64,000 nucleotides of DNA from Polynucleobacter sp. (GTDB lineage Bacteria > Pseudomonadota > Gammaproteobacteria > Burkholderiales > Burkholderiaceae). The notes under the pieces are model-generated. The model was not told the DNA's origin and did not search any database. It saw only the letters and a list, made by a program, of their open reading frames with translations. Position 1 is the first letter of the stretch; each line of letters starts with the position of its first letter. Shown piece by piece: positions 39,919 through 50,713 of the stretch. A program made the position numbers and the translations under genes. The stretch is taken from the NCBI GenBank assembly GCA_044225315.1, contig JBGAIU010000009.1, forward strand, positions 672-64,671, read 5' to 3'.

Positions 39919-40923
39919 TTATTTCACGATAATTTCGTCAAAAGTACCACCATCATTAAAGTGTGTTTTTTGTGCGTTCGTCCAACCGTCAAACACTTGG
40001 TCAATAGTAATTAATTTAACCTTAGCAAATTGATTGGCGTACTTGGCAGCAACTTTAGGGTCGCGAGGGCGATAGTAGTTGCGTGCAGCAATTTCTTGCC
40101 CTTCAGGTGTGTAAAGACCTTGAAGATACGCCGTTGCCACTTTACGAGTACCTTTTTTATCAACCACTTTATCTACTACTGCGACAGGTGGTTCAGCCAA
40201 GATTGATAGAGATGGAGTCACAATTTCAAATTTATCTGGACCCAATTCTTTAACTGCTAAGAAGGCTTCATTTTCCCAAGCTAGTAAAACGTCACCAATG
40301 CCGCGTTCGGTAAAGGTGGTGGTTGCACCGCGAGCACCAGAGTCTAAAACTTTAACGTTTGCATATAGTTTTTTCACAAACTCTTTTGCCTTGGCATCAT
40401 TGCCGCCTGGTTGTTTAAGCGCATAAGCCCAAGCTGCTAGGTAGTTCCAACGTGCTCCACCGGAGGTTTTTGGGTTTGGTGTAATGACTTCAACGCCTGG
40501 TTTGATGAGGTCATTCCAGTCCTTGATGCCTTTTGGATTGCCTTTGCGAACCAAAAACACAATAGTTGATGTGTATGGAGAGGAATTGTCTTTAAATTTC
40601 TTTTGCCAATCTTTTGAGAGTAGACCCTTTTCAGCCAAAATATCAATGTCGTATGCGAGTGCTAGTGTCACAACATCAGCATCTAAACCATCAATAACTG
40701 CGCGGGCTTGTTTTCCAGAGCCACCATGGGATTGTTTGATGGAAATCTCTTCACCGGTTTTTTTCTTCCAGTCTGGTGCAAACACTTTGTCATAGTCTTG
40801 GTAGAGTTCGCGAGTTGGGTCATAGGAAACGTTCAGAATACTTTGTTGTGCAAAGCTGGTAGATATCAAGCCAGCGCCCAGTAAAAGCGCTGCTAAAAAT
40901 TTTGATAGACCCTGGTGTTTCAT
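39919..40923 (-). CDS. sbp: sulfate-binding periplasmic protein
   Basis: [33 protein letters not shown]; signal peptide present. Confidence 0.96.
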
Positions 40924-40966
40924 TGCAATTCCTTTCAGTTAATGAAAGGAATTTAGAGAAAAACCC

Positions 40967-41629
40967 TTAGCTTGTTAAGCAAGAAAAAGTGGATTGGTTA
41001 TCGTTAATTGGAATTAAAGGACTTTTCTCTTTAAAAACAGAGACTTTCGTCTCATTTCTGTAGGATGGAGCGTAGTTCTTGAAATGATTGAATAGTTTAA
41101 GTCCATCTGGCCATGGGCCAAATCCTGATGCCGTATTGATGTGGCCGGCATCTTTTATGGTAAAAGTACGACTTCCCCAGCAATCCCCCCAAAGTCTTGC
41201 CTTTGAAGCTTGCATCCATGGGTCATTATCACTAGCAATCAGGAGGCTGGGAACCGGGAGTGATTGTGTTGGGATTTGGGCGCGAATACTCTCCGAAGCC
41301 CCCATGCCATGCCAACGCTTCACCCCAGATTGATCAAAGCGTTCTGGGTCGGCGGGTGCCACAAGCATGAGACCAGCCACTTTTTCAGGATTTTCGACTG
41401 CGGCCAAAATAGACGCTAAGCACCCAAAGCTATGCGCGATAAGCCACACAGGGGCAGTAAGGTCGGTTAGGGTGCGGGCAATATTGGTAGCCCAATTGGC
41501 CAAAACAGGCTGTTCCCAGTTTTGATGAATACGCTTTGAGCCTGGAATTTGAGCTTCCATCCAAGTTTGCCAATGAGCTTCTTCGCTGCCCCGATAGCCC
41601 GGGATGATGAGAGTGCTGATATTAGTCAT
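40967..41629 (-). CDS. RBBP9/YdeN-type alpha/beta hydrolase
   Basis: IPGYRGSEEAHWQTW, AHSFGC, SDNDPW, GHIN; likely start ATG 41629. Confidence 0.88.
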   Translation of the reverse strand: MTNISTLIIPGYRGSEEAHWQTWMEAQIPGSKRIHQNWEQPVLANWATNIARTLTDLTAPVWLIAHSFGCLASILAAVENPEKVAGLMLVAPADPERFDQSGVKRWHGMGASESIRAQIPTQSLPVPSLLIASDNDPWMQASKARLWGDCWGSRTFTIKDAGHINTASGFGPWPDGLKLFNHFKNYAPSYRNETKVSVFKEKSPLIPINDNQSTFSCLTS

Positions 41630-41783
41630 GGTGAATTGCGGATGACTATATAACTCACCACTGCAATTTGGAATCAAGAAAAAATGCTAACGATATTTAG
41701 GAATGCTTATCTGTAATTCTTGGTTCTCACGTTGACGGTTTAGTCATAAATTTCATTTGTTTATTCATTTATGCAAATGGCTT

Positions 41784-42689
41784 ATGTCTCACCATTCAAT
41801 TTCTAGCGCCTTAAACCTTTCTCAAGTGGTTAGCGATTTGCGCCGCTCAAGAGAAGAAACGCACAAGATTCGTCATTTGGACAGGGTACGAGAGCTTCCA
41901 TCCAGAGAAGCTTTAGAGAAAATTTTAGAGGGCTTATTTGCTGCATTATTTCCAACCCACTATGGTCGCGCCGATCTGACGGATGAGAGTATTGATTACT
42001 TTGTGGGTAATGTTCTAAGTGTGGTCCTGAATTCCTTGACCGAACAAATTCGTCGTGGTCTTTATTTCTCTTCCGATAGTAATTTAGAGAAAGAGGAAAA
42101 ATTTGACGCTTTATCAGAAACATTAGCGAGTCAATTTGCTAGCGAGCTTCCTGCAATTCGAGCATTAATCGTTAGTGATATACGTGCGGCAATGAGTGGC
42201 GATCCAGCTGCCACTAGCGTTTCTGAGATTCTCTTGTGCTATCCAGGTGTTAGCGCAGTGATTCATTACCGAATTGCTCATGCCCTATATGAATTAGGCG
42301 CGCCGCTATTAGCCCGATTTATTTCTGAGATTGCTCACTCTCGCACAGGTGTGGATATTCACCCTGGCGCGAAGATCGGAGAGGGCTTTTTCATTGATCA
42401 TGGCACTGGCGTAGTGATTGGTCAGACGGCCATTTTGGGTAAGAACATTCGTCTATATCAAGCAGTTACTTTGGGCGCAAAACGGTTCCCAGAAGATGAT
42501 GAAGGCAATCTGATTAAGGGGGCAGATCGGCACCCAATTTTGGAAGATGACGTTGTTATTTATGCGGGTGCAACAGTACTTGGGCGAATCACGATTGGCG
42601 CGCGATCGACCATAGGCGGCAATGTGTGGCTTACAAAGAGTGTTCCCCCGGATAGCAATATTTCTCAGGCTCAAACACTTGGGCACTAA
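41784..42689 (+). CDS. cysE: serine O-acetyltransferase (EpsC/CysE type)
   Basis: GDPAA, GVDIHPGAKIG, FFIDHGTGVVIG, RHPILEDDVVIYAGATVLG. Confidence 0.94.
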   Translation: MSHHSISSALNLSQVVSDLRRSREETHKIRHLDRVRELPSREALEKILEGLFAALFPTHYGRADLTDESIDYFVGNVLSVVLNSLTEQIRRGLYFSSDSNLEKEEKFDALSETLASQFASELPAIRALIVSDIRAAMSGDPAATSVSEILLCYPGVSAVIHYRIAHALYELGAPLLARFISEIAHSRTGVDIHPGAKIGEGFFIDHGTGVVIGQTAILGKNIRLYQAVTLGAKRFPEDDEGNLIKGADRHPILEDDVVIYAGATVLGRITIGARSTIGGNVWLTKSVPPDSNISQAQTLGH

Positions 42690-42744
42690 GCAATAAAGAA
42701 ACAATTTTTTACTTATTTTTTAAACAACAACCAAAGGAGTAGTT

Positions 42745-43665
42745 ATGGCAGAAGTAATTCAAAGTCCAACAGCGTTAGGAGATTTGGCCGCACGGCAGTT
42801 AGCAAACGCTACGAAAACAGTACCTCAGTTATCAACAATTACCCCGCGTTGGTTAACTCAACTTTTGGGTTGGGTTCCTGTTGAGGCAGGTATTTATCGT
42901 CTAAATCGAGTAATTAACCCATCTGAAGTATTAACAGACTGTTCAAGTCGTGATAACGAGCGTGTATTGCCACAAACATTTGTGGACTATGATGCTAAGC
43001 CACGCGAATATTTCTTGAGTGCTGTTAATACAGTATTAGATGTTCATACCCGTATTTCAGATCTATACAGCAGTCCATACAATCAAATTAGCGAGCAGTT
43101 GCGTTTAACTATCGAAACTGTCAAAGAGCGTCAAGAAGGTGAATTAATTAATAACGCTGAGTATGGCTTACTTGCAAGCGTTGCGCCTGATCAACGTATC
43201 AAAACTCGTACTGGCGCACCAACACCAGATGATTTGGATGAGTTGTTGACTAAAGTTTGGAAAGAGCCTGGTTTCTTCTTGGCCCATCCTAAGACAATCG
43301 CTGCATTTGGTCGTGAATGTACTCGTCGCGGCGTTCCTCCTCCAACAGTTAGACTCTTTGGCAGTCAATTTTTGACATGGCGTGGCGTTCCATTGATTCC
43401 ATCAGACAAAGTCAAGATTCAGGATGGTAAATCTTCAATCCTATTGATTCGTAGCGGTGAGAAAAAGCAAGGCGTGGTTGGCTTGTATCAACCTAATTTG
43501 CCAGGTGAGCAAAGCCCAGGCCTCTTAGTTCGTTTCATGGGGATTAATAACAAAGCAATCGCTTCTTATTTGGTTTCTTTGTATTGCTCTTTGGCAGTAC
43601 TGACTGATGATGCGCTTGCAGTGTTAGATGGCGTTGAGATTGGCAAATACCATGAGTACAAGTAA
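42745..43665 (+). CDS. family 2A encapsulin nanocompartment shell protein (SrpI-like)
   Basis: ARQLANATKTVPQLSTITPRWL, WVPVEAGIYRLNRV, PTPDDLDELL, ECTRRGVPPP, YLVSLYCSLAVL; 306 aa. Confidence 0.95.
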   Translation: MAEVIQSPTALGDLAARQLANATKTVPQLSTITPRWLTQLLGWVPVEAGIYRLNRVINPSEVLTDCSSRDNERVLPQTFVDYDAKPREYFLSAVNTVLDVHTRISDLYSSPYNQISEQLRLTIETVKERQEGELINNAEYGLLASVAPDQRIKTRTGAPTPDDLDELLTKVWKEPGFFLAHPKTIAAFGRECTRRGVPPPTVRLFGSQFLTWRGVPLIPSDKVKIQDGKSSILLIRSGEKKQGVVGLYQPNLPGEQSPGLLVRFMGINNKAIASYLVSLYCSLAVLTDDALAVLDGVEIGKYHEYK

Positions 43666-45418
43666 TCCAGTGCAAACTGGGCAACTCGATCCTCAGATCT
43701 TGGCGGATTTGGCAAATCAGAATTTCTCTGATTTTCAACACCAGCCAAGTGGTTTGGGTGATCCACGCGGCAATTTGCCCAGTGGTGTCGCTAGCCATTC
43801 CTTTCAGCCTAATGCCTCTCTAGATTTGGCGACCATTGCTCAGCAAGCATTGAGTAGTTTGCAGCAACAGAGTGGTAATGAGTCATTTGCAGGGCATCCA
43901 AGCTCCTTGGGTTTGGGTGATCCACGCGGCAATTTGCCAAGTGGAGTGGCTAGTCCTTCGATTCAGCCACCTAGCTCTCTCGATGTGAACTTGGTACCGC
44001 AGCAAGCCCTCGGTGGGGCTCAACAGCAAGCTGGTCATGATGCGCTCGCAAAAGACCCAAGCTCTTTATCTCTTGGTAAGAGTTTTGGTTTTGAGCAATT
44101 CATTGGCAACTCGTTATTAAGCGACTTATCCAATCCAACCAATAATCCATTGGTGAATCAGATATTCCTTAATGAGGTACCTGCTGTTAAGAGCCAGAAC
44201 ACTGCGCTTGACCCATTATTGGTTCGAAAAGATTTCCCAATCCTTTCAGAGCGAGTCAATGGTCGTCAGTTAATCTGGTTTGATAATGCTGCTACTACAC
44301 AAAAGCCACAGGCTGTGATTGATCGCATCAGCTATTTTTATGAGCACGAGAATTCCAATATTCACCGTGCTGCCCATGAATTAGCTGCGCGCGCAACCGA
44401 TGCCTATGAAGGTGCTCGTGAAAAGGTAAGGGCATTCCTCAATGCTAAATCTGTTAACGAGATCGTCTTTGTGCGCGGTACGACCGAGGCAATTAACTTG
44501 GTATCACAGAGTTGGGGGCGTCAAAACCTCAAAGAGGGCGATGAGATCATTTTTAGCAATCTTGAGCATCATGCCAATATCGTTCCATGGCAGTTGTTAG
44601 CCAAAGAAAAGAGATTGCGTCTCCGCGTGATACCTGTGAATGACGATGGAGAGCTCTTGTTGGATGAGTATCAAAAGCTCTTCAATGCTCGCACTAAGCT
44701 GGTAAGTTTTACTCATGTCTCAAATGCTTTGGGTACGATTACCCCAGCTAAGAAGATCATTGAGATTGCTCACGCAGCTGGCGTGAAAGTATTGTTAGAC
44801 GGTGCACAGTCTATCTCTCATATGAAGGTTGATCTTCAAGATCTGAATCCTGACTGGTTTGTATTCTCTGGACACAAGGTATTTGGCCCTACTGGTATTG
44901 GCGCTCTCTATGGCAAGGAAGATTTGCTCAATGCAACTCAACCATGGCAAGGTGGCGGCAATATGATTCAGGATGTGACCTTTGAGCACACTAAGTTTTA
45001 TGATGCTCCAAGCCGTTTTGAAGCTGGGACTGGGAATATTGCTGATGCTGTTGGTCTTGGCGCTGCGTTGGATTATGTTAATTCCGTTGGGATTGATTTA
45101 ATTGATCAGTACGAGCATCAACTTCTCTTGTATGCAACACGCTTATTAAAAGAAGTCCCCGGCGTGCGGTTAATTGGTACAGCGAAGGATAAGGCTAGTG
45201 TTCTATCTTTTGTGATTCCAGGCATTAAGACCGAGGACATCGGTGCCGCTTTAAATAAAGAGGGTATCGCAGTACGATCTGGCCACCATTGTGCTCAGCC
45301 TATCTTGCGTCGTATGGGTGTAGAAACTACCGTAAGACCATCATTGGCTTTCTACAATACCTGTCAAGAGGTGGATAAGATGATTGCTGTATTGCATCGT
45401 ATTCGCTCTCAGCATTGA
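43652..45418 (+). CDS. family 2A encapsulin cargo cysteine desulfurase (SufS-type) with long N-terminal extension
   Basis: FDNAATTQKP, SGHKVFGPTG (PLP Lys), RSGHHCAQP (catalytic Cys); about 180-aa low-complexity N-terminus; ATG 43652 overlaps the shell stop. Confidence 0.93.
   Translation: MSTSNPVQTGQLDPQILADLANQNFSDFQHQPSGLGDPRGNLPSGVASHSFQPNASLDLATIAQQALSSLQQQSGNESFAGHPSSLGLGDPRGNLPSGVASPSIQPPSSLDVNLVPQQALGGAQQQAGHDALAKDPSSLSLGKSFGFEQFIGNSLLSDLSNPTNNPLVNQIFLNEVPAVKSQNTALDPLLVRKDFPILSERVNGRQLIWFDNAATTQKPQAVIDRISYFYEHENSNIHRAAHELAARATDAYEGAREKVRAFLNAKSVNEIVFVRGTTEAINLVSQSWGRQNLKEGDEIIFSNLEHHANIVPWQLLAKEKRLRLRVIPVNDDGELLLDEYQKLFNARTKLVSFTHVSNALGTITPAKKIIEIAHAAGVKVLLDGAQSISHMKVDLQDLNPDWFVFSGHKVFGPTGIGALYGKEDLLNATQPWQGGGNMIQDVTFEHTKFYDAPSRFEAGTGNIADAVGLGAALDYVNSVGIDLIDQYEHQLLLYATRLLKEVPGVRLIGTAKDKASVLSFVIPGIKTEDIGAALNKEGIAVRSGHHCAQPILRRMGVETTVRPSLAFYNTCQEVDKMIAVLHRIRSQH
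43751..44068 (+). repeat. 2 x 159-bp (53-aa) tandem repeat in the desulfurase N-terminal extension
   Basis: Units 43751-43909 and 43910-44068 both begin GLGDPRGNLPSGVAS and end PSSL; first 44 nt 41/44 identical. Confidence 0.92.
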
Positions 45419-45444
45419 TGACTTGCTATTAAAGTAAGTGAAGT

Positions 45445-45475
45445 AAAAAAAGGGCCACTGTGAAGTGGCCTTTTT
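45445..45475. terminator. bidirectional terminator after the encapsulin operon
   Basis: A-tract, GGCCACT-GTGA-AGTGGCC, T tract. Confidence 0.8.
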
Positions 45476-45489
45476 GTAGCTATATTTAT

Positions 45490-45654
45490 TTATGCGAAAG
45501 AGTCTTCAAATTCGGCATACTTAATTGTATTCATCAAAAATAGAATGCGGCGCTGGAAGTTCTTACGCTCTTCAATTTGATCGTGGGGAAGTTGATCGTG
45601 CTCACGCAGTAATTTAGTAATTACAGAGTTATAAAGCTCTCTAACGGGTGACAT
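45490..45654 (-). CDS. small hypothetical protein (54 aa, absent from ORF track)
   Basis: MSPVRELYNSVITKLLREHDQLPHDQIEERKNFQRRILFLMNTIKYAEFEDSFA*; AGGA just upstream; ends at a terminator. Confidence 0.65.
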   Translation of the reverse strand: MSPVRELYNSVITKLLREHDQLPHDQIEERKNFQRRILFLMNTIKYAEFEDSFA

Positions 45655-45848
45655 GATCTTTCCTAAGTTTCTATATTTAGGAATAATTTACCCCCACGCT
45701 ATATATCTCGCAAGCAATCTTTATTGCTATAGATATGCCAGATTAGAATATAGGCTGAAATCCTATATGTCTACTATGTTTAGCAGATTTTCTTGGTTCC
45801 TAGTTGCAGTTTGTTTGCCTAATATAAACCTATTCAATAGGAGGGTTT

Positions 45849-46121
45849 ATGAGCAAGCAGATTGGATTTACCGTGGCAAAGAATTCGTTCTTTGTCTCCT
45901 TGCTAAGCGCATTGGCTGGCGTAGGACTTATTGGCGCTTCTGTTCATTTTGGCGCTCAAAATGATTTCTTGGCTAATTTATTTCAAAATGGTAGAACCTT
46001 ATTCGACTATCTGCTCGGAGCAGGTATTGTCGGAAGTTTTGTTCTTGGGGTTTATCTTGTAGCAAGACATGTTGCTAGAGAAGGTGTTGCTGAGCAATTC
46101 TACGAGCAAACACCTTATTAA
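45849..46121 (+). CDS. hypothetical two-TM membrane protein
   Basis: GAGGG RBS, two hydrophobic segments, followed by a terminator. Confidence 0.7.
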   Translation: MSKQIGFTVAKNSFFVSLLSALAGVGLIGASVHFGAQNDFLANLFQNGRTLFDYLLGAGIVGSFVLGVYLVARHVAREGVAEQFYEQTPY

Positions 46122-46141
46122 TAACTCAGAATTATTCAATA

Positions 46142-46167
46142 AAAAGGGTGCTTAAAAGCACCCTTTT
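46142..46167. terminator. bidirectional terminator
   Basis: AAAAGGGTGCTT-AA-AAGCACCCTTTT. Confidence 0.8.
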
Positions 46168-46189
46168 GTTTATGTTTAGAAGCAGAAGC

Positions 46190-46966
46190 TTATTTTTCTA
46201 CGAATGCGCGCTCAAAGACGTAGTCGCCCATCTGACCAAGGCTTGGGGAAACCTTAAAGCCTTTTGCATCAAGCATTTCCGAGGTTTCTTTAAGCATAGA
46301 AGGGCTGCCGCAGATCATGGCGCGATCAACAGCGGGATCGAGTGGTGGCAAGCCGATATCTTTAAAGAGTTGACCAGATTCGATGGCGGTTGTTAAGCGT
46401 CCAGTGTGTTTGAATGCTTCGCGAGTGACTGTTGGGTAATAGATAAGCTTCTCACGAATCAGTTCACCAAGATATTCATCTTGAGTTAACTCATTTTTGA
46501 TGTAATCAGCATAAGCAAGCTCGCTCACCAAACGCACACCGTGAATAAGCACTACTTTTTCGAATTTTTCGTAAGTCTCTGGGTCGCGAATGATGCTCAT
46601 AAATGGAGCAAGACCGGTGCCAGTGCTAAAGAGATAGAGGTGTTTTCCAGGGTTGAGATCATCTAAAACCAAAGTTCCAACGGACTTTTCACTCACAAGA
46701 ATGGGGTCGCCCACCTGAATCTTCTGTAGGCGTGATGTTAGTGGACCATCTTGAACTTTGATGCTTAAAAATTCCAAGTGCTCTTCGTAATTGGGGCTTG
46801 CTACGCTATATGCGCGAACCAGAGGTTTGCCTTCAACCTCAAAACCAATCATAAGAAAGTGACCGCTGCGAAAACGTAGGCCTTTGTTGCGGGTAGTGGT
46901 AAAGCTAAATAAGGTGTCGTTCCAATGATGAACGGTTAAAACGGTTTCGGTGTGATATGCGGCCAT
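46190..46966 (-). CDS. fpr: ferredoxin-NADP reductase
   Basis: RAYSVAS, GPLTSRL, STGTGLAPF, MICGSP, ERAFVEK; likely start ATG 46966. Confidence 0.95.
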   Translation of the reverse strand: MAAYHTETVLTVHHWNDTLFSFTTTRNKGLRFRSGHFLMIGFEVEGKPLVRAYSVASPNYEEHLEFLSIKVQDGPLTSRLQKIQVGDPILVSEKSVGTLVLDDLNPGKHLYLFSTGTGLAPFMSIIRDPETYEKFEKVVLIHGVRLVSELAYADYIKNELTQDEYLGELIREKLIYYPTVTREAFKHTGRLTTAIESGQLFKDIGLPPLDPAVDRAMICGSPSMLKETSEMLDAKGFKVSPSLGQMGDYVFERAFVEK

Positions 46967-47126
46967 ATAAAGCGTAGTTACGTAGTTAATTTGCAAAACC
47001 TTGATTATCCTCAAAATTTGTACTGTTTTAGCCAAATCGATGGATTAACTTTTTATATCCAATCCACTTTTAGTAATAAAGCCAAGATTTGATTGGCTCA
47101 TGGCGCCATCCCGCTATGATTGAGGT

Positions 47127-47615
47127 ATGACTAGAGCGCAATATTTATATCTATCCTTGTTAAGCCTGAGTTTGGTGGCCTTTGCTGTCGTTTTGCAGCA
47201 AGTAGGCTACCAGGGCGTTAGTTTCTTGCCATGCCCTCTGTGCATCTTGCAAAGAGTCGGCTATTTGGTGATCGCAGTAGCATGTTTTATGGCGGCAAGC
47301 CTTCAGCCTGGACGAAAACTCTTTCATGGAGTGGCAATTATTGGGGCTATTTATGGCGCGGTCATTGCCGGAAAGCAAGTATGGCTTTTATCTCATCCAG
47401 AAAGTTCATGCGGTATTGATCCGCTAGAGGTGTGGATTAATCAATTTCAATTAGCTCAAGGTCTTCCGTGGTTATTTAAGGCGGATGGACTTTGCTCTGC
47501 AAAATTGCCCACTATTTTTGGATTGCAGGTTCCAGAGTGGTCATTGGTTTGGTTTTTGATTTTCTCATCTATCTTGCTATACACATTTTTTAGGAAGAAA
47601 AATAACAAGACTTAA
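47127..47615 (+). CDS. dsbB: disulfide bond formation protein B
   Basis: PCPLCILQR and a second Cys pair (SCG...GLC); four TM helices. Confidence 0.9.
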   Translation: MTRAQYLYLSLLSLSLVAFAVVLQQVGYQGVSFLPCPLCILQRVGYLVIAVACFMAASLQPGRKLFHGVAIIGAIYGAVIAGKQVWLLSHPESSCGIDPLEVWINQFQLAQGLPWLFKADGLCSAKLPTIFGLQVPEWSLVWFLIFSSILLYTFFRKKNNKT

Positions 47616-47719
47616 GCTGTATGTCTCTGTATAGATTTGAAATTGCTTTGCTTATTTAACTTAGCAAAGCAAAAAATCTTGGTTTACGAAATTCTCCTAA
47701 TGCTCAATACTGAGTTTTC

Positions 47720-48220
47720 TTTAGTCAAAAGGAGAATTAAATTGAGTACCTCTATTAAGCACGCCAAATTAAATAATTCATTGAATGTAGTCGCCAGGGT
47801 TTTATTGGCATCACTATTTCTCACATCAGGTATTTCCAAAGTAACAAATTTTCAAGTGATAAGTGACTTGGTCGCGTCTGTTGGCATTCCATATGCTGGA
47901 GCTTGGACAGCCTTAGTGATTGTTTTAGAAATCTTAGGATCTCTTGCCATTATTTTTGGGTATCAAGCCAGAATTGCGGCTGCACTCTTAGGTTTTTTCT
48001 CAATCATCGCGGCATTTCTTTTTCACAACTATTGGGGCGCACCTGCTGATCAGCAATACATACAACAGCTTCTTTTCTATAAAAATCTGAGTATTGCAGG
48101 AGGTTTATTTTTGCTTTCATCATTTGATTCAGGCAAATGGTCTGTTGATCATCGCTTGCAAGTGAAGGCCAATCATCAATCTTTAAATCAATCTGCTGTT
48201 GCAGGTTAATTTAGTCAAAA
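47720..48220 (+). repeat. 11-bp direct repeat TTTAGTCAAAA (47720-47730, 48210-48220) flanking the DoxX gene
   Basis: Read directly from sequence; each copy precedes a GGAGAATT RBS. Confidence 0.7.
47742..48209 (+). CDS. DoxX family membrane protein
   Basis: ARVLLASLFLTSGISK, FYKNLSIAGG, GKWSVD; TTG start after GGAGA. Confidence 0.88.
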   Translation: MSTSIKHAKLNNSLNVVARVLLASLFLTSGISKVTNFQVISDLVASVGIPYAGAWTALVIVLEILGSLAIIFGYQARIAAALLGFFSIIAAFLFHNYWGAPADQQYIQQLLFYKNLSIAGGLFLLSSFDSGKWSVDHRLQVKANHQSLNQSAVAG

Positions 48221-48239
48221 TTTTATAAGGGGAGAATTT

Positions 48240-48512
48240 ATGAGTAGAGCTGAATTGGTTGAAAAGATATTAAAGGATGCTGATATTACAAAAGCGCTTT
48301 CAGAAACAATTCTGAATTCCATTTTGCACAACATTACTAAAGTGGTGACAAAGGGTAACAGCGTTCAATTGATTGGATTTGGAACCTTTAGTTCAGGAAA
48401 GAGGGCTGCAAGAGTAGGTCGCAATCCGAAAACAGGTGAAGCTATACAAATTCCTGCAGCTAAGACTGTGAAATTTACTGCGGGCAAGGCATTTAAGGAT
48501 GCAGTTAATTGA
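48240..48512 (+). CDS. HU family DNA-binding protein
   Basis: [33 protein letters not shown]. Confidence 0.93.
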
Positions 48513-48623
48513 CGTAAATCTTAATTAAGAAAAAGAAGAAAGGGTGCTTTATGTTGCCTCGCCCTGATTTGAGGGTGAGGCAATAGATATTTCCGACTAA
48601 TAAATTTGTTAAAAAGCTTTTTC

Positions 48624-49479
48624 TTAGCCAAAGGTAATGCGATGAAGTAAGCGATGTTGATTACCATAATCATTCGCAGCATAGTGAACAGTTGCACGGT
48701 TATCCCAGATGGCAACCGTGTTCCTCTCCCAACGTAATCGGGCTTGAAACTCTGGTCTTTGGAACTGGGCAAATATGAAAGTTAGAAGGGCATCACTTTG
48801 TTGGCGCGACAACCCTTTAATGCGGTCCGTGAAATTAGGATTTACATAAATGATTTTTTCCTGTTACAGGGTGAACGCGTACTACAGGATGAACTACTGG
48901 TAGGTTCTCTGCACGGGCTTGGCGATAGACTTCCTCGCCATTTTCGAGTTTGGAAAAATAATTAGGCCAACCACTATGCTCAAAGCTATGTGTTGCCTCC
49001 AGGGTTTCTAAATAGGTTTGCAAATGGCTCGGAAGCGATTCATATACAGCGGTAGCGCTGGCCCAGAGAGTATCTCCACCTGAGGTTGGAATGATATGAG
49101 AGTAAAGAACAGTTCTAGTAGGCGGGTTTTGAGAGAAGGTAATGTCAGCATGCCATTGGTCAGTTCCATAGCGATGGCCAGATGGCTTGGCTTCAATTAC
49201 TTCAATGAGTTTGTGATCACCCAGTCTTGGGAAGAAAGCTTTTGTTTTATTAGGATCCCCAAATACTTTGGCAACCTCAACCTGCTGGTCTGGAGTGAGT
49301 TTTTGGTCGCGGAAAAATAGCACTTGGAATTCAGAGAGGGCTTTACGTAGCTCATCTCGAACAGGCTCGGAATCTAATTTGGACAGATCTAAGTCGTAAA
49401 TAGTGGCGCCAATATTGGGCGTATAGGGCTCAATGGATAGATGGGCATAACCTGGCACTGCATATTCAATTTTTGACAT
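48624..49479 (-). pseudogene. tauD: TauD/TfdA dioxygenase frameshifted in an A-run at 48854-48859
   Basis: WHADITF, HPVVRVHP; adding one A restores TGKKIIYVNPNFT...IWDNRATVHYA...HRITFG*. Confidence 0.9.
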
Positions 49480-49732
49480 CTCATGACCCTTTTTCTTGAT
49501 TTAGTACGAAAGGGGAGATTAAGTACTGCATTCGAAGTTGTGAAGAATGAAATTCTGATTTGCTTATCTATAAAAGCGATATTTGCTTCTAATCGCTTTG
49601 TTTAGCGCTGGAAACGCCTTTATCAAAAATTAAGCTAAGCAACTCAGAAAGTATTGGTTCTTTTGCAGAATCTCTTTTCCTAGAATGACAAATCCAATCT
49701 CTTGCGCGCATTGCGCCTATTTCAGAAGGTAG

Positions 49733-50713
49733 ATGATGAATTTCGGTAAACTAAGAATGCTATTGGTAACTTTTAAGACGCTTGTGCTTTCAAGCGCTTT
49801 GGTGTTTTCTTCTGCCCAAGCGGATAACCCAAATACTTTAAGAATTGGTTATCAAAAATCATCAAGTATTCTGACTTTACTTAAGGCGGATGGCTCTTTT
49901 GAGAAGCAGCTTGGATTTAAGGGGGTGGATGTCAAGTGGGTTGAGTTTCCTGCAGGTCCACAGTTGCTAGAGGGTCTCAATGTCGGCTCTATTGATTTTG
50001 GTTATGTAGGCGAGGCTCCTCCGATATTTGCTCAGGCTGCTGGAGCAAGCTTCGTATATGTTGGTTATCAAACTCCGGCACCTAAAGCTGAAGCAATTCT
50101 GGTGCCAAAGGATTTGCCAATTAAGAAAGTTTCCGATCTAAAGGGTAAAAAGGTTGCCCTCAACAAGGGTTCAAATGTTCACTATTTGTTAATTAAAGTA
50201 TTAGAAAAGCACGGCCTGAAATATTCTGATGTGCAGCCCGTATTTCTCGCGCCCGCAGACGCACGAGCAGCTTTTGAAAAGGGGAGTGTAGACGCTTGGG
50301 CAATTTGGGATCCATTCCAAGCAGCCGCAGAAATTCAAATTGGCGCTAAGGAACTCGCTAATGGAGTTGGCACAGTAAATAACGTAAATTACTTCCTAGC
50401 TTCACGGCCTTACGCAGAAAAAAATCCAGCAGTCATTAAAGCGCTATTTGCCGCAATTTCCGAGCAAGGCGCTTGGATTACCAAGAATAAAAAGGCAGCT
50501 GCAGAAGCGCTCGCCCCAATTCAAGGCCTTACTCCAGATGTCATTGAACTGAGCATTAGTCGATATCACAACGATATCTTGCCGATTAACAGCAAAATAT
50601 TGGCCGATCAACAAAAGGTCGCTGATGTTTTCTATGAACTGAAGCTAATTCCGCAACCAATTGCCGTTAAAGATGCAGTTTTTCAACTGAAAAGGCTAAA
50701 TAATGTTTGCTAG
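49733..50713 (+). CDS. ssuA: aliphatic sulfonate ABC transporter substrate-binding protein (copy 1)
   Basis: RIGYQK, EFPAGPQLLEGL, KGSNVH, AIWDPF. Confidence 0.92.
   Translation: MMNFGKLRMLLVTFKTLVLSSALVFSSAQADNPNTLRIGYQKSSSILTLLKADGSFEKQLGFKGVDVKWVEFPAGPQLLEGLNVGSIDFGYVGEAPPIFAQAAGASFVYVGYQTPAPKAEAILVPKDLPIKKVSDLKGKKVALNKGSNVHYLLIKVLEKHGLKYSDVQPVFLAPADARAAFEKGSVDAWAIWDPFQAAAEIQIGAKELANGVGTVNNVNYFLASRPYAEKNPAVIKALFAAISEQGAWITKNKKAAAEALAPIQGLTPDVIELSISRYHNDILPINSKILADQQKVADVFYELKLIPQPIAVKDAVFQLKRLNNVC

Follow-up and report, generated by a model that had tools for sequence, protein, structure and literature searches.

What does a tandem repeat of 53 residues do in the N-terminal extension of an encapsulin cargo enzyme? 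This question is raised by a 64,000-nucleotide (nt) stretch of contig JBGAIU010000009.1 from Polynucleobacter sp. (assembly GCA_044225315.1), hereafter called the window, in which the gene for a family 2A encapsulin shell is followed by a gene for a cysteine desulfurase with a long N-terminal extension (positions 43652-45418; the features of this cluster lie on the forward strand). Within this extension two units of 53 amino acids (aa) abut each other directly (unit 1, 43751-43909; unit 2, 43910-44068), and each carries a conserved core, DPRGxLPSGVASHSxQP, which we call motif B (copy 1, DPRGNLPSGVASHSFQP, 43760-43810; copy 2, DPRGNLPSGVASPSIQP, 43919-43969). By analogy with characterized encapsulins, we consider it probable (about 0.6) that motif B is a short motif that docks the cargo on the shell, and that its valency has been doubled by the duplication.

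The two units are identical at 34 of 53 aa and at 108 of 159 nt, and they align with a BLOSUM62 local score of 169 compared to 25.8 ± 5.1 for shuffled sequences (z = 28; none of 5000 shuffles reached 169). Since the diverged tails of the units still give z = 15 when they are aligned alone, the duplication is real and spans the whole 53 aa. A preliminary description made from the letters of this DNA had reported two directly abutting peptides with the first 15 aa identical, 3 synonymous differences in the first 44 nt and a diverged remainder. This was borne out, in the frame of the cargo open reading frame (ORF), with a fourth difference, also synonymous, at the end of the first 45 nt (unit positions 30, 36, 39 and 45). 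Tandem Repeats Finder did not detect the repeat in the DNA because a nucleotide identity of 68% lies below its threshold. The repeat motif was absent elsewhere in the six-frame translation of the window, and a phmmer search with residues 1-186 of the N-terminal domain (NTD) against 1.84 billion representatives retrieved only the sequence P0003 and a spurious carbonic-anhydrase repeat protein, so that the module occurs in no other protein family at detectable similarity. The trivial explanation would be an artefact of assembly or annotation, by collapsed or duplicated reads or by a wrong frame. We found nothing in its favour and regard its likelihood as negligible: units that are 68% identical at the nucleotide level are not a mis-assembled exact repeat, the repeat is read without interruption into a desulfurase domain with strong matches, and the presence of the two-unit layout in more than 17 independent genomes and metagenomes (NCBI, JGI, ENA and Logan) refutes it.

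As judged from sequence, the repeat-bearing gene is the cargo gene of a family 2A (SrpI/CyD type) encapsulin system, which agrees with the assignment in the preliminary description. The shell protein encoded upstream (42745-43665, 306 aa) is SrpI-like with an HK97-type domain, lacks the cyclic nucleotide (cNMP)-binding insertion and matches PF19307 over aa 67-300 (E-value 1.2e-106). Its full-length matches in the PDB include 8T6R from A. baumannii (E-value 2.7e-156), 6X8M, which is SrpI (1.1e-148), and the mycobacterial Mmp1 8WOL (all at or below 1e-135), whereas family 2B shells (470-477 aa) aligned to it only in two stretches in the same type of search. The shells of S. elongatus (SrpI) and A. 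baumannii are 75-78% identical to that of the window. Shell residues F264 and Y275 correspond to F262 and Y273 of SrpI, the cargo-contact residues at the three-fold axis, and the F/Y pair was kept in all 80 loci that we retrieved from GTDB genomes with a shell-based scan. The cargo is a SufS-type cysteine desulfurase, with an Aminotran_5 domain at aa 208-576 (E-value 1.3e-144) and a match to PDB entry 8KG1 over aa 176-584 (E-value 1.2e-174). SufS-type desulfurases in the PDB align only from about aa 176-192 onward, which means that the first 185-200 residues of the cargo constitute the extension; the catalytic domain (44207-45415) begins at the conserved LDPLLVRKDFPIL. Close Polynucleobacter relatives carry the NCBI label 'family 2A encapsulin nanocompartment cargo protein cysteine desulfurase'. 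The ORF lister places the cargo within an ORF of 596 aa (43628-45418), with translation probably beginning at the in-frame ATG of position 43652 (MSTSN...); the cargo starts at the same offset, with M-S/N-T/I-S/N, in most of 77 related loci. The shell stop and the cargo start thereby overlap by 14 nt (43652-43665, ATGAGTACAAGTAA), and the recurrence of this offset in most of the 77 loci across phyla suggests a conserved translational coupling. The first gene of the cluster (41757-42689, start codon as given by the ORF lister) encodes an EpsC/CysE-like serine O-acetyltransferase (SAT) with the Pfam domains Hexapep and SATase_N. The resulting order SAT-shell-cargo is the same as in S. elongatus pANL, and a SAT gene is located 5' of srpI in Variovorax as well. 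With the family 2A systems S. elongatus SrpI/CyD, A. baumannii Enc/CD and M. smegmatis Mmp1/Enc-CD, the locus thus shares the gene order, the SufS-type cargo and the long unannotated NTD.

The origin of the duplication was addressed with close relatives from a full-length search. When their N-terminal extensions were aligned and the repeat copies counted, as the preliminary description had proposed, 17 orthologs (82-98% identity) were found to carry two copies, and the core was conserved. All 17 keep both units, and in 15 of them the NTD is exactly 198 aa long. Four intact orthologs (P0026-P0029, 534-561 aa) carry a single copy, and a P. victoriensis-type group has a diverged version (RGVPTSHAP). 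In a neighbour-joining tree of the catalytic domain the 17 two-copy sequences form one clade nested in the one-copy grade P0026-P0029, which points to a single duplication of an ancestral one-copy form. From the tree and the alignments, the repeat is thus one lineage-specific duplication inside one Polynucleobacter clade. The unit tails are orthologous across genomes (W1 with P1a, W2 with P1b and P4b), and unit 2 retains the ancestral form of the tail, QQALGGxQQQAGHDALxxxPSSL, which is also the form of the one-copy orthologs. A 53-aa module of motif B plus tail was duplicated in a single tandem event in the ancestor of the clade, which produced the arrangement A-B1-tail1-B2-tail2-C-D, in which A, C and D are the conserved islands described below. 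When the NTD was used by itself in a word-indexed search for homologs, only 4 matches were obtained. Two of them, P0003 and P0004, have one or two units and were left out of the evidence on selection and on the ancestral copy number because their loci are eroded, with shell and cargo fragmented or deleted.

Erosion of this kind is visible at two loci. At L085 (3307-5618; NCBI GCA_900095205.1, on a 1.93-Mb contig) shell and cargo are each in fragments, and at L087 (4001-5348) the shell is gone and the cargo begins inside unit 1. Neighbouring genes are broken up as well, a picture expected of a genome in decay that may belong to a symbiont.

The preliminary description had read the identity of the unit heads as selection on GLGDPRGNLPSGVAS. 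This holds for part of the head. The element conserved across orthologs is DPRGxLPSGVASHSxQP, which lies 3 residues downstream of that peptide and is 5 residues longer; the GLG at the head of the unit is not conserved, and orthologs have AVS, SLA, PLS, VSG and others in its place. Between the two units of the window, the core (codons 5-20) shows 0.058 non-synonymous substitutions per site (dN) at 0.80 synonymous substitutions per site (dS), compared to a dN of 0.47 in the tail. In all paralogous and orthologous pairs the dN of the core ranges from 0.06 to 0.16 at a dS of 0.8 or above, which is saturated in some pairs, and the dN of the tails is 0.40-0.47 between paralogs and 0.12-0.21 between orthologs. 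These values support purifying selection on the core. Over 15 two-copy orthologs, the mean column conservation amounts to 0.94 for motif A, 0.94 for B1, 0.80 for B2 and 0.55-0.72 for the linkers, and copy 2, the less constrained one, is degenerate in several orthologs (LLTGATS, FLSGATT, LPTGATS). After the duplication, purifying selection continued to act on both cores, more strictly on B1 than on B2; the tails diverged from each other before each became conserved. Two two-copy orthologs have length changes in this region: P0021 has a 5-aa insertion in motif B copy 1 (LPSGAFPSSVAS) and P0022 a 4-aa deletion (DPPSGVAS).

Another part of the head similarity has a different origin. Both units begin with the same 29 nt (43751-43779 and 43910-43938), nine third-codon positions included. 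This tract probably reflects gene conversion in the lineage of the window, since the nucleotide identity of the paralogous heads is 0.87 in the window, compared to 0.67-0.78 for the paralogous heads of other genomes and 0.68-0.75 for orthologous heads; a comparable tract of 27/28 nt is present in L096. The identity that drew attention to the repeat is therefore partly a probable gene-conversion tract, and conversion explains the 29 identical nucleotides better than selection on GLGDPRGNLPSGVAS does.

The same observations open the possibility of a near-neutral linker expansion, in which the duplication merely lengthened a disordered tether and the heads were kept similar by gene conversion rather than by selection on a second site. 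In favour of this explanation are the identical tract of the window and the near-identical one of L096, paralogous heads that in the window are more alike than orthologous ones, the intact one-copy orthologs, the degenerate B2 copies such as LLTGATS and FLSGATT, and the wide variation of CLD length within the family (81-372 aa). However, L086, which shows no homogenization (head nucleotide identity 0.67), keeps the B core peptide in both copies, and the dN of the core is low in spite of a dS of 0.8 or above, which is saturated in some pairs. Moreover, the retention of both units by 17 of 17 two-copy orthologs, with a constant NTD length in 15, is unexpected of a dispensable spacer, and each tail is itself conserved among orthologs. 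Taken together, we consider linker expansion unlikely, and selection on motif B as a docking element remains our preferred reading.

This reading draws its plausibility from the domain in which the module is located. In family 2A systems, loading is reported to depend on several short motifs that are joined by flexible linkers and of which none is sufficient singly (PMC8049743, PMC10836720, PMC11659603). In S. elongatus, the motifs LARLANEFFS and AASPYYFLDG are conserved, and weak density was seen close to F262 and Y273 at the three-fold axis (PMC8049743). For the cargo-loading domain (CLD) of A. baumannii, PMC10836720 describes 'five relatively short motifs' and discontiguous densities at the three-fold pores and the A-domains, and proposes a model of motifs linked by flexible linkers. 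In M. smegmatis, single motifs were insufficient and either half of the intrinsically disordered region loaded cargo (PMC11659603). The duplicated module thus belongs to a domain whose role in driving loading was demonstrated by three laboratories. The cryo-electron microscopy density in family 2A is weak and discontiguous, and no CLD residue has been placed at a site (PMC8049743, PMC10836720). A search of the PDB for a solved CLD retrieved only 8KG1, a structure that lacks the NTD, and shells in which no CLD had been modelled.

The layout of the window's CLD follows this general plan. It consists of short conserved islands, namely A (LDPxxLAxLANQNFSD), B, a helix-prone tail, C (FGxEQF..SLLxxL) and D (NQIFLNE), with variable linkers between them, and this is the form that has been shown experimentally to drive loading in the family 2A systems named above. 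Motif A (LDPQILADLANQNFSD, 43685-43732) is of the LARLANEFFS type, is predicted to be helical and is among the most conserved islands of the Polynucleobacter clade. It contains ILADLANQNF (cargo residues 15-24, 43694-43723; LADLANQNF at aa 16-24), in which the preliminary description had seen a resemblance to the cargo-loading motif of family 2A desulfurases; the peptide indeed matches the published LARLANEFFS (PMC8049743), and a version of it is present within the first 70 aa of 73 of 81 orthologs. In the tail of unit 1, an island with mostly invariant columns in 15 orthologs (LDLATIAQQALSSL, 43820-43861) is helix-prone and weakly resembles motif A (LDxxxLAxLA). Its local alignment to motif A gave p = 0.04 for the window, the values for one-copy orthologs being 0.02-0.6, and the expression LD...[LI]A.[LQ]A, which was picked post hoc, matches both at aa 12 and at aa 57 (P about 2e-4 from shuffles). 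That the LxxLAN motif itself takes part in the repeat, as an array A-B-A'-B'-A'', may be regarded as a suggestive lead. Motifs C (SLGKSFGFEQFIGNSLLSDLSNPT) and D (NNPLVNQIFLNE) occupy 44069-44176 with conservation values of 0.83 and 0.91, and by position only they would be the counterparts of FGLPxxxELxxLL and (S/A)PYYFL in other family 2A CLDs. Some 25 aa separate NQIFLNE from the DFPIL that follows it, and 74 of 81 orthologs match a relaxed pattern that also covers the clear YYFL forms. As in other family 2A systems, the CLD has a LARLANEFFS-type motif near the N-terminus; close to the catalytic domain, NQIFLNE would by its position be a degenerate version of the YYFL-type motif, unlike in other family 2A CLDs. 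In an AlphaFold2 model of the cargo, the predicted local distance difference test (pLDDT) score is below 50 for residues 1-255, with only short helices, such as those at 14-21 (motif A) and at 59-72 (the tail island), of low confidence, and with motif B copy 1 as coil. The composition of the N-terminal extension and its lack of a PDB or Pfam match are in agreement with disorder.

How motif B might act within this domain is suggested by family 2B encapsulins, the CLDs of which have a GPxGLGT consensus that is often present in multiple repeats (PMC11550324). The short peptide GPTGLGTS suffices for binding to the lumenal three-fold pocket, and its copies function redundantly or cooperatively, with redundancy between two of them (PMC11550324, PMC8346489, bioRxiv 10.64898/2026.07.21.739788), and the residues of this pocket were reported to be nearly identical in 2A shells (PMC11550324). 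Motif B resembles the 2B motifs of 2-methylisoborneol synthase and geosmin synthase (GPxGLGT/GPTGLGTS) in being a short, Pro/Gly-rich and hydrophobic motif that occurs in more than one copy in a region predicted to be disordered, and LPSGVAS matches GPTGLGT conservatively at 6 of 7 positions. It differs in its first position (L, not G) and in its flanks (DPRG... and ...SHSxQP), and the window further differs in its cargo enzyme and in its shell, which lacks the cNMP-binding domain. The relation to the 2B peptide is accordingly best described as a functional analogy. On this analogy, we infer that B would dock as a short linear motif on a hydrophobic patch of the shell lumen, for which the conserved three-fold pocket with F264 and Y275 is the best candidate, and that doubling B may raise the valency, avidity or reach of a weak, multi-site and partly redundant interaction, and with it may affect loading. 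A comparable principle is found in CsoS2 of alpha-carboxysomes, where repeated short motifs of a disordered protein bind the lumen of the shell in a multivalent and discontiguous manner; the analogy was drawn by the authors of PMC10836720. Unlike the cargo discussed here, CsoS2 is a scaffold and not the targeting domain of an enzyme, and the proteins, the shell fold and the repeat sequence are unrelated.

Motif B might instead serve a partner other than the shell lumen, by recruiting a sulfur acceptor or another enzyme, nucleating shell assembly, promoting condensation of the cargo or providing a site of regulated proteolysis. Proteolysis that removes the NTD was reported for wild-type CyD (PMC8049743), and genes for rhodaneses and SATs are frequent in family 2A operons. 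Against this, no other protein encoded in the window has a complementary or matching motif, and the closest sequence analogue of B, GPxGLGT, is a shell-binding peptide. In addition, the experimentally assigned function of the NTD has always been cargo loading, with no effect of the NTD on catalysis (PMC8049743, PMC11659603). A different partner therefore appears distinctly improbable, and docking on the shell is the reading that we pursue below.

To what extent is motif B part of a wider pattern? In the CLDs of the other 80 family 2A loci, the relaxed pattern [GLIVA]P.[GS][LVI][GAS][GSTH] was found in 51, with 77 matches and 0-4 copies per CLD, compared to a mean of 2.4 and a maximum of 8 in shuffled sequences. 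Both copies in the window also match the stricter, 2B-like P[ST]G[LV][GA][ST]. The impression in the preliminary description that the repeated peptide is not a recognizably described one can thus be kept in part only, given this enrichment and the known repeated motifs of family 2B (PMC11550324). In the searchable literature we found no description of a tandem module duplication in the CLDs of family 2A desulfurases, the five-motif logos of PMC10836720 being uncompared. By eye, LPSGVASHS resembles GLPxGLSHL in Aquabacterium, Herbaspirillum and others, IPSTSSLSHA in Methylopumilus-type CLDs and I/VPxSVAGSGISPSA in Bacteroidota. The Bacteroidota repeats belong to the same family, follow motif A, occur in 1-4 tandem copies with numbers that vary between relatives, and share a hydrophobic-P-x-S/G-V/L-A-G/S core. 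They differ from those of the window in period (40 aa compared to 53 aa) and in their tails, and the expansions are independent and lineage-specific. Demonstrated homology of B to the Bacteroidota and Burkholderiales motifs was considered and dropped after searches with hidden Markov models (HMMs), and these motifs are kept as members of the same pattern class.

Several of our results weigh against motif B as a docking element. The enrichment of the relaxed pattern is inflated by the shared ancestry of the loci and by the choice of the pattern after inspection of the data, and not one of the 80 other 2A CLDs contains the strict 2B-like pattern. Matches to a B-like pattern are absent from the CLDs of A. 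baumannii and S. elongatus, which load well; the duplicated 53-aa module with its core DPRGxLPSGVASHSxQP indeed has no match there. On the window, an HMM of the Bacteroidota unit (57 instances) scored no more than -2.9 bits for its best domain, and an HMM of the Burkholderiales GLPxGLSHL gave no significant match to it. With hhalign, DPRGNLPSGVASHSFQPNAS and the Bacteroidota unit xxxGxVPxSVAGSGISPSAx aligned in the expected register, at P = 0.0046 and a probability of only 7.6%. Given the HMM misses and this low probability, homology of B across lineages is not established. The AlphaFold2 calls of disorder and helices are weak evidence because the mean pLDDT of the model, built on an alignment of 27 sequences, is 46. 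Finally, the intact one-copy orthologs and the degenerate B2 copies indicate that the second copy is not essential. A non-essential second copy fits, by analogy, the redundancy in loading that was seen experimentally in other systems.

Across the family, the CLDs are far more variable than the shells. The shell is about 77-91% identical to that of the window across Pseudomonadota, Bacteroidota and Acidobacteriota-labelled metagenome-assembled genomes, and the CLD is hypervariable (81-372 aa) and almost unalignable. Either the shell is under extreme constraint, or horizontal transfer is frequent and CLDs turn over fast. Significant internal repeats (z of at least 6) were detected in 21 of 85 CLDs, and the spread in CLD length is largely a matter of copy number. 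The Bacteroidota-type CLDs (L009, L020, L068, L074, L036, L059, L064 and L076) contain 2-4 tandem units of about 40 aa, PQTSLPDPHFAGxGxIPxSVAGSGISPSA; in L009 two motif segments of 31 aa differ only at the last residue, which suggests a recent duplication. The NTD of S. elongatus pANL cyd (L082, 4632-6512) shows a weaker internal duplication of aa 5-58 versus 68-129 (z = 5.4) and has the LxxL motif twice (ERSLEQLTQTVLQD and ERSLAQLAQAVLQD); we found no mention of this duplication in the text of PMC8049743. The A. baumannii CLD (L081) has two YYFL-type motifs (ESPYYFLND and SSAFYFLDL), as do CLDs of the Zoogloea/Janthinobacterium type, so that a different CLD motif was duplicated in these lineages.

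The surroundings of the cluster may bear on its physiological role. It is adjoined by a gene for a sulfate-binding protein (39919-40923, supported by Pfam), and further downstream a gene for an SsuA-like periplasmic binding protein (49733-50713) and a TauD-like gene were named from their translations only. The encapsulin cluster is thus located amid genes that resemble sulfur-acquisition genes (39919-50713), which fits the reported role of SrpI in sulfur starvation. The ORF of the TauD-like protein (taurine dioxygenase family; 48835-49479, reverse strand) stops early, and the rest (KIIYVNPNFTDRIKGL...WDNRATVHYAANDY) is found in another frame just downstream; this frameshift (48560-49479, reverse strand) represents either a pseudogene or a sequencing error.

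The repeat described here is a lineage-specific variation on a known targeting system rather than a new kind of system, and it does not overturn the multi-motif model of loading. If motif B were not a docking element, the duplication would merely be another lineage-specific expansion in a fast-evolving disordered domain. A broader idea, which we put forward tentatively and consider doubtful rather than probable, is that hydrophobic-P-x-(G/S)-hydrophobic-(G/A/S)-(G/S/T/H) may be a general shell-docking peptide of Family 2, the 2A counterpart of GPxGLGT, and that its copy number (0 to 4 or more) may act as an evolvable dial of cargo occupancy or geometry, and thus of sulfur-storage capacity. If this were true, the one-copy and two-copy CLDs of Polynucleobacter, with their nearly identical shells, would form a ready-made pair in which to look for an effect of valency. 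A cleanly duplicated island beside one-copy sister lineages offers a defined peptide together with a natural valency series. As a docking element, motif B would link the loading rules of families 2A and 2B, and it would provide a short tag whose copy number may tune the loading of engineered cargo.

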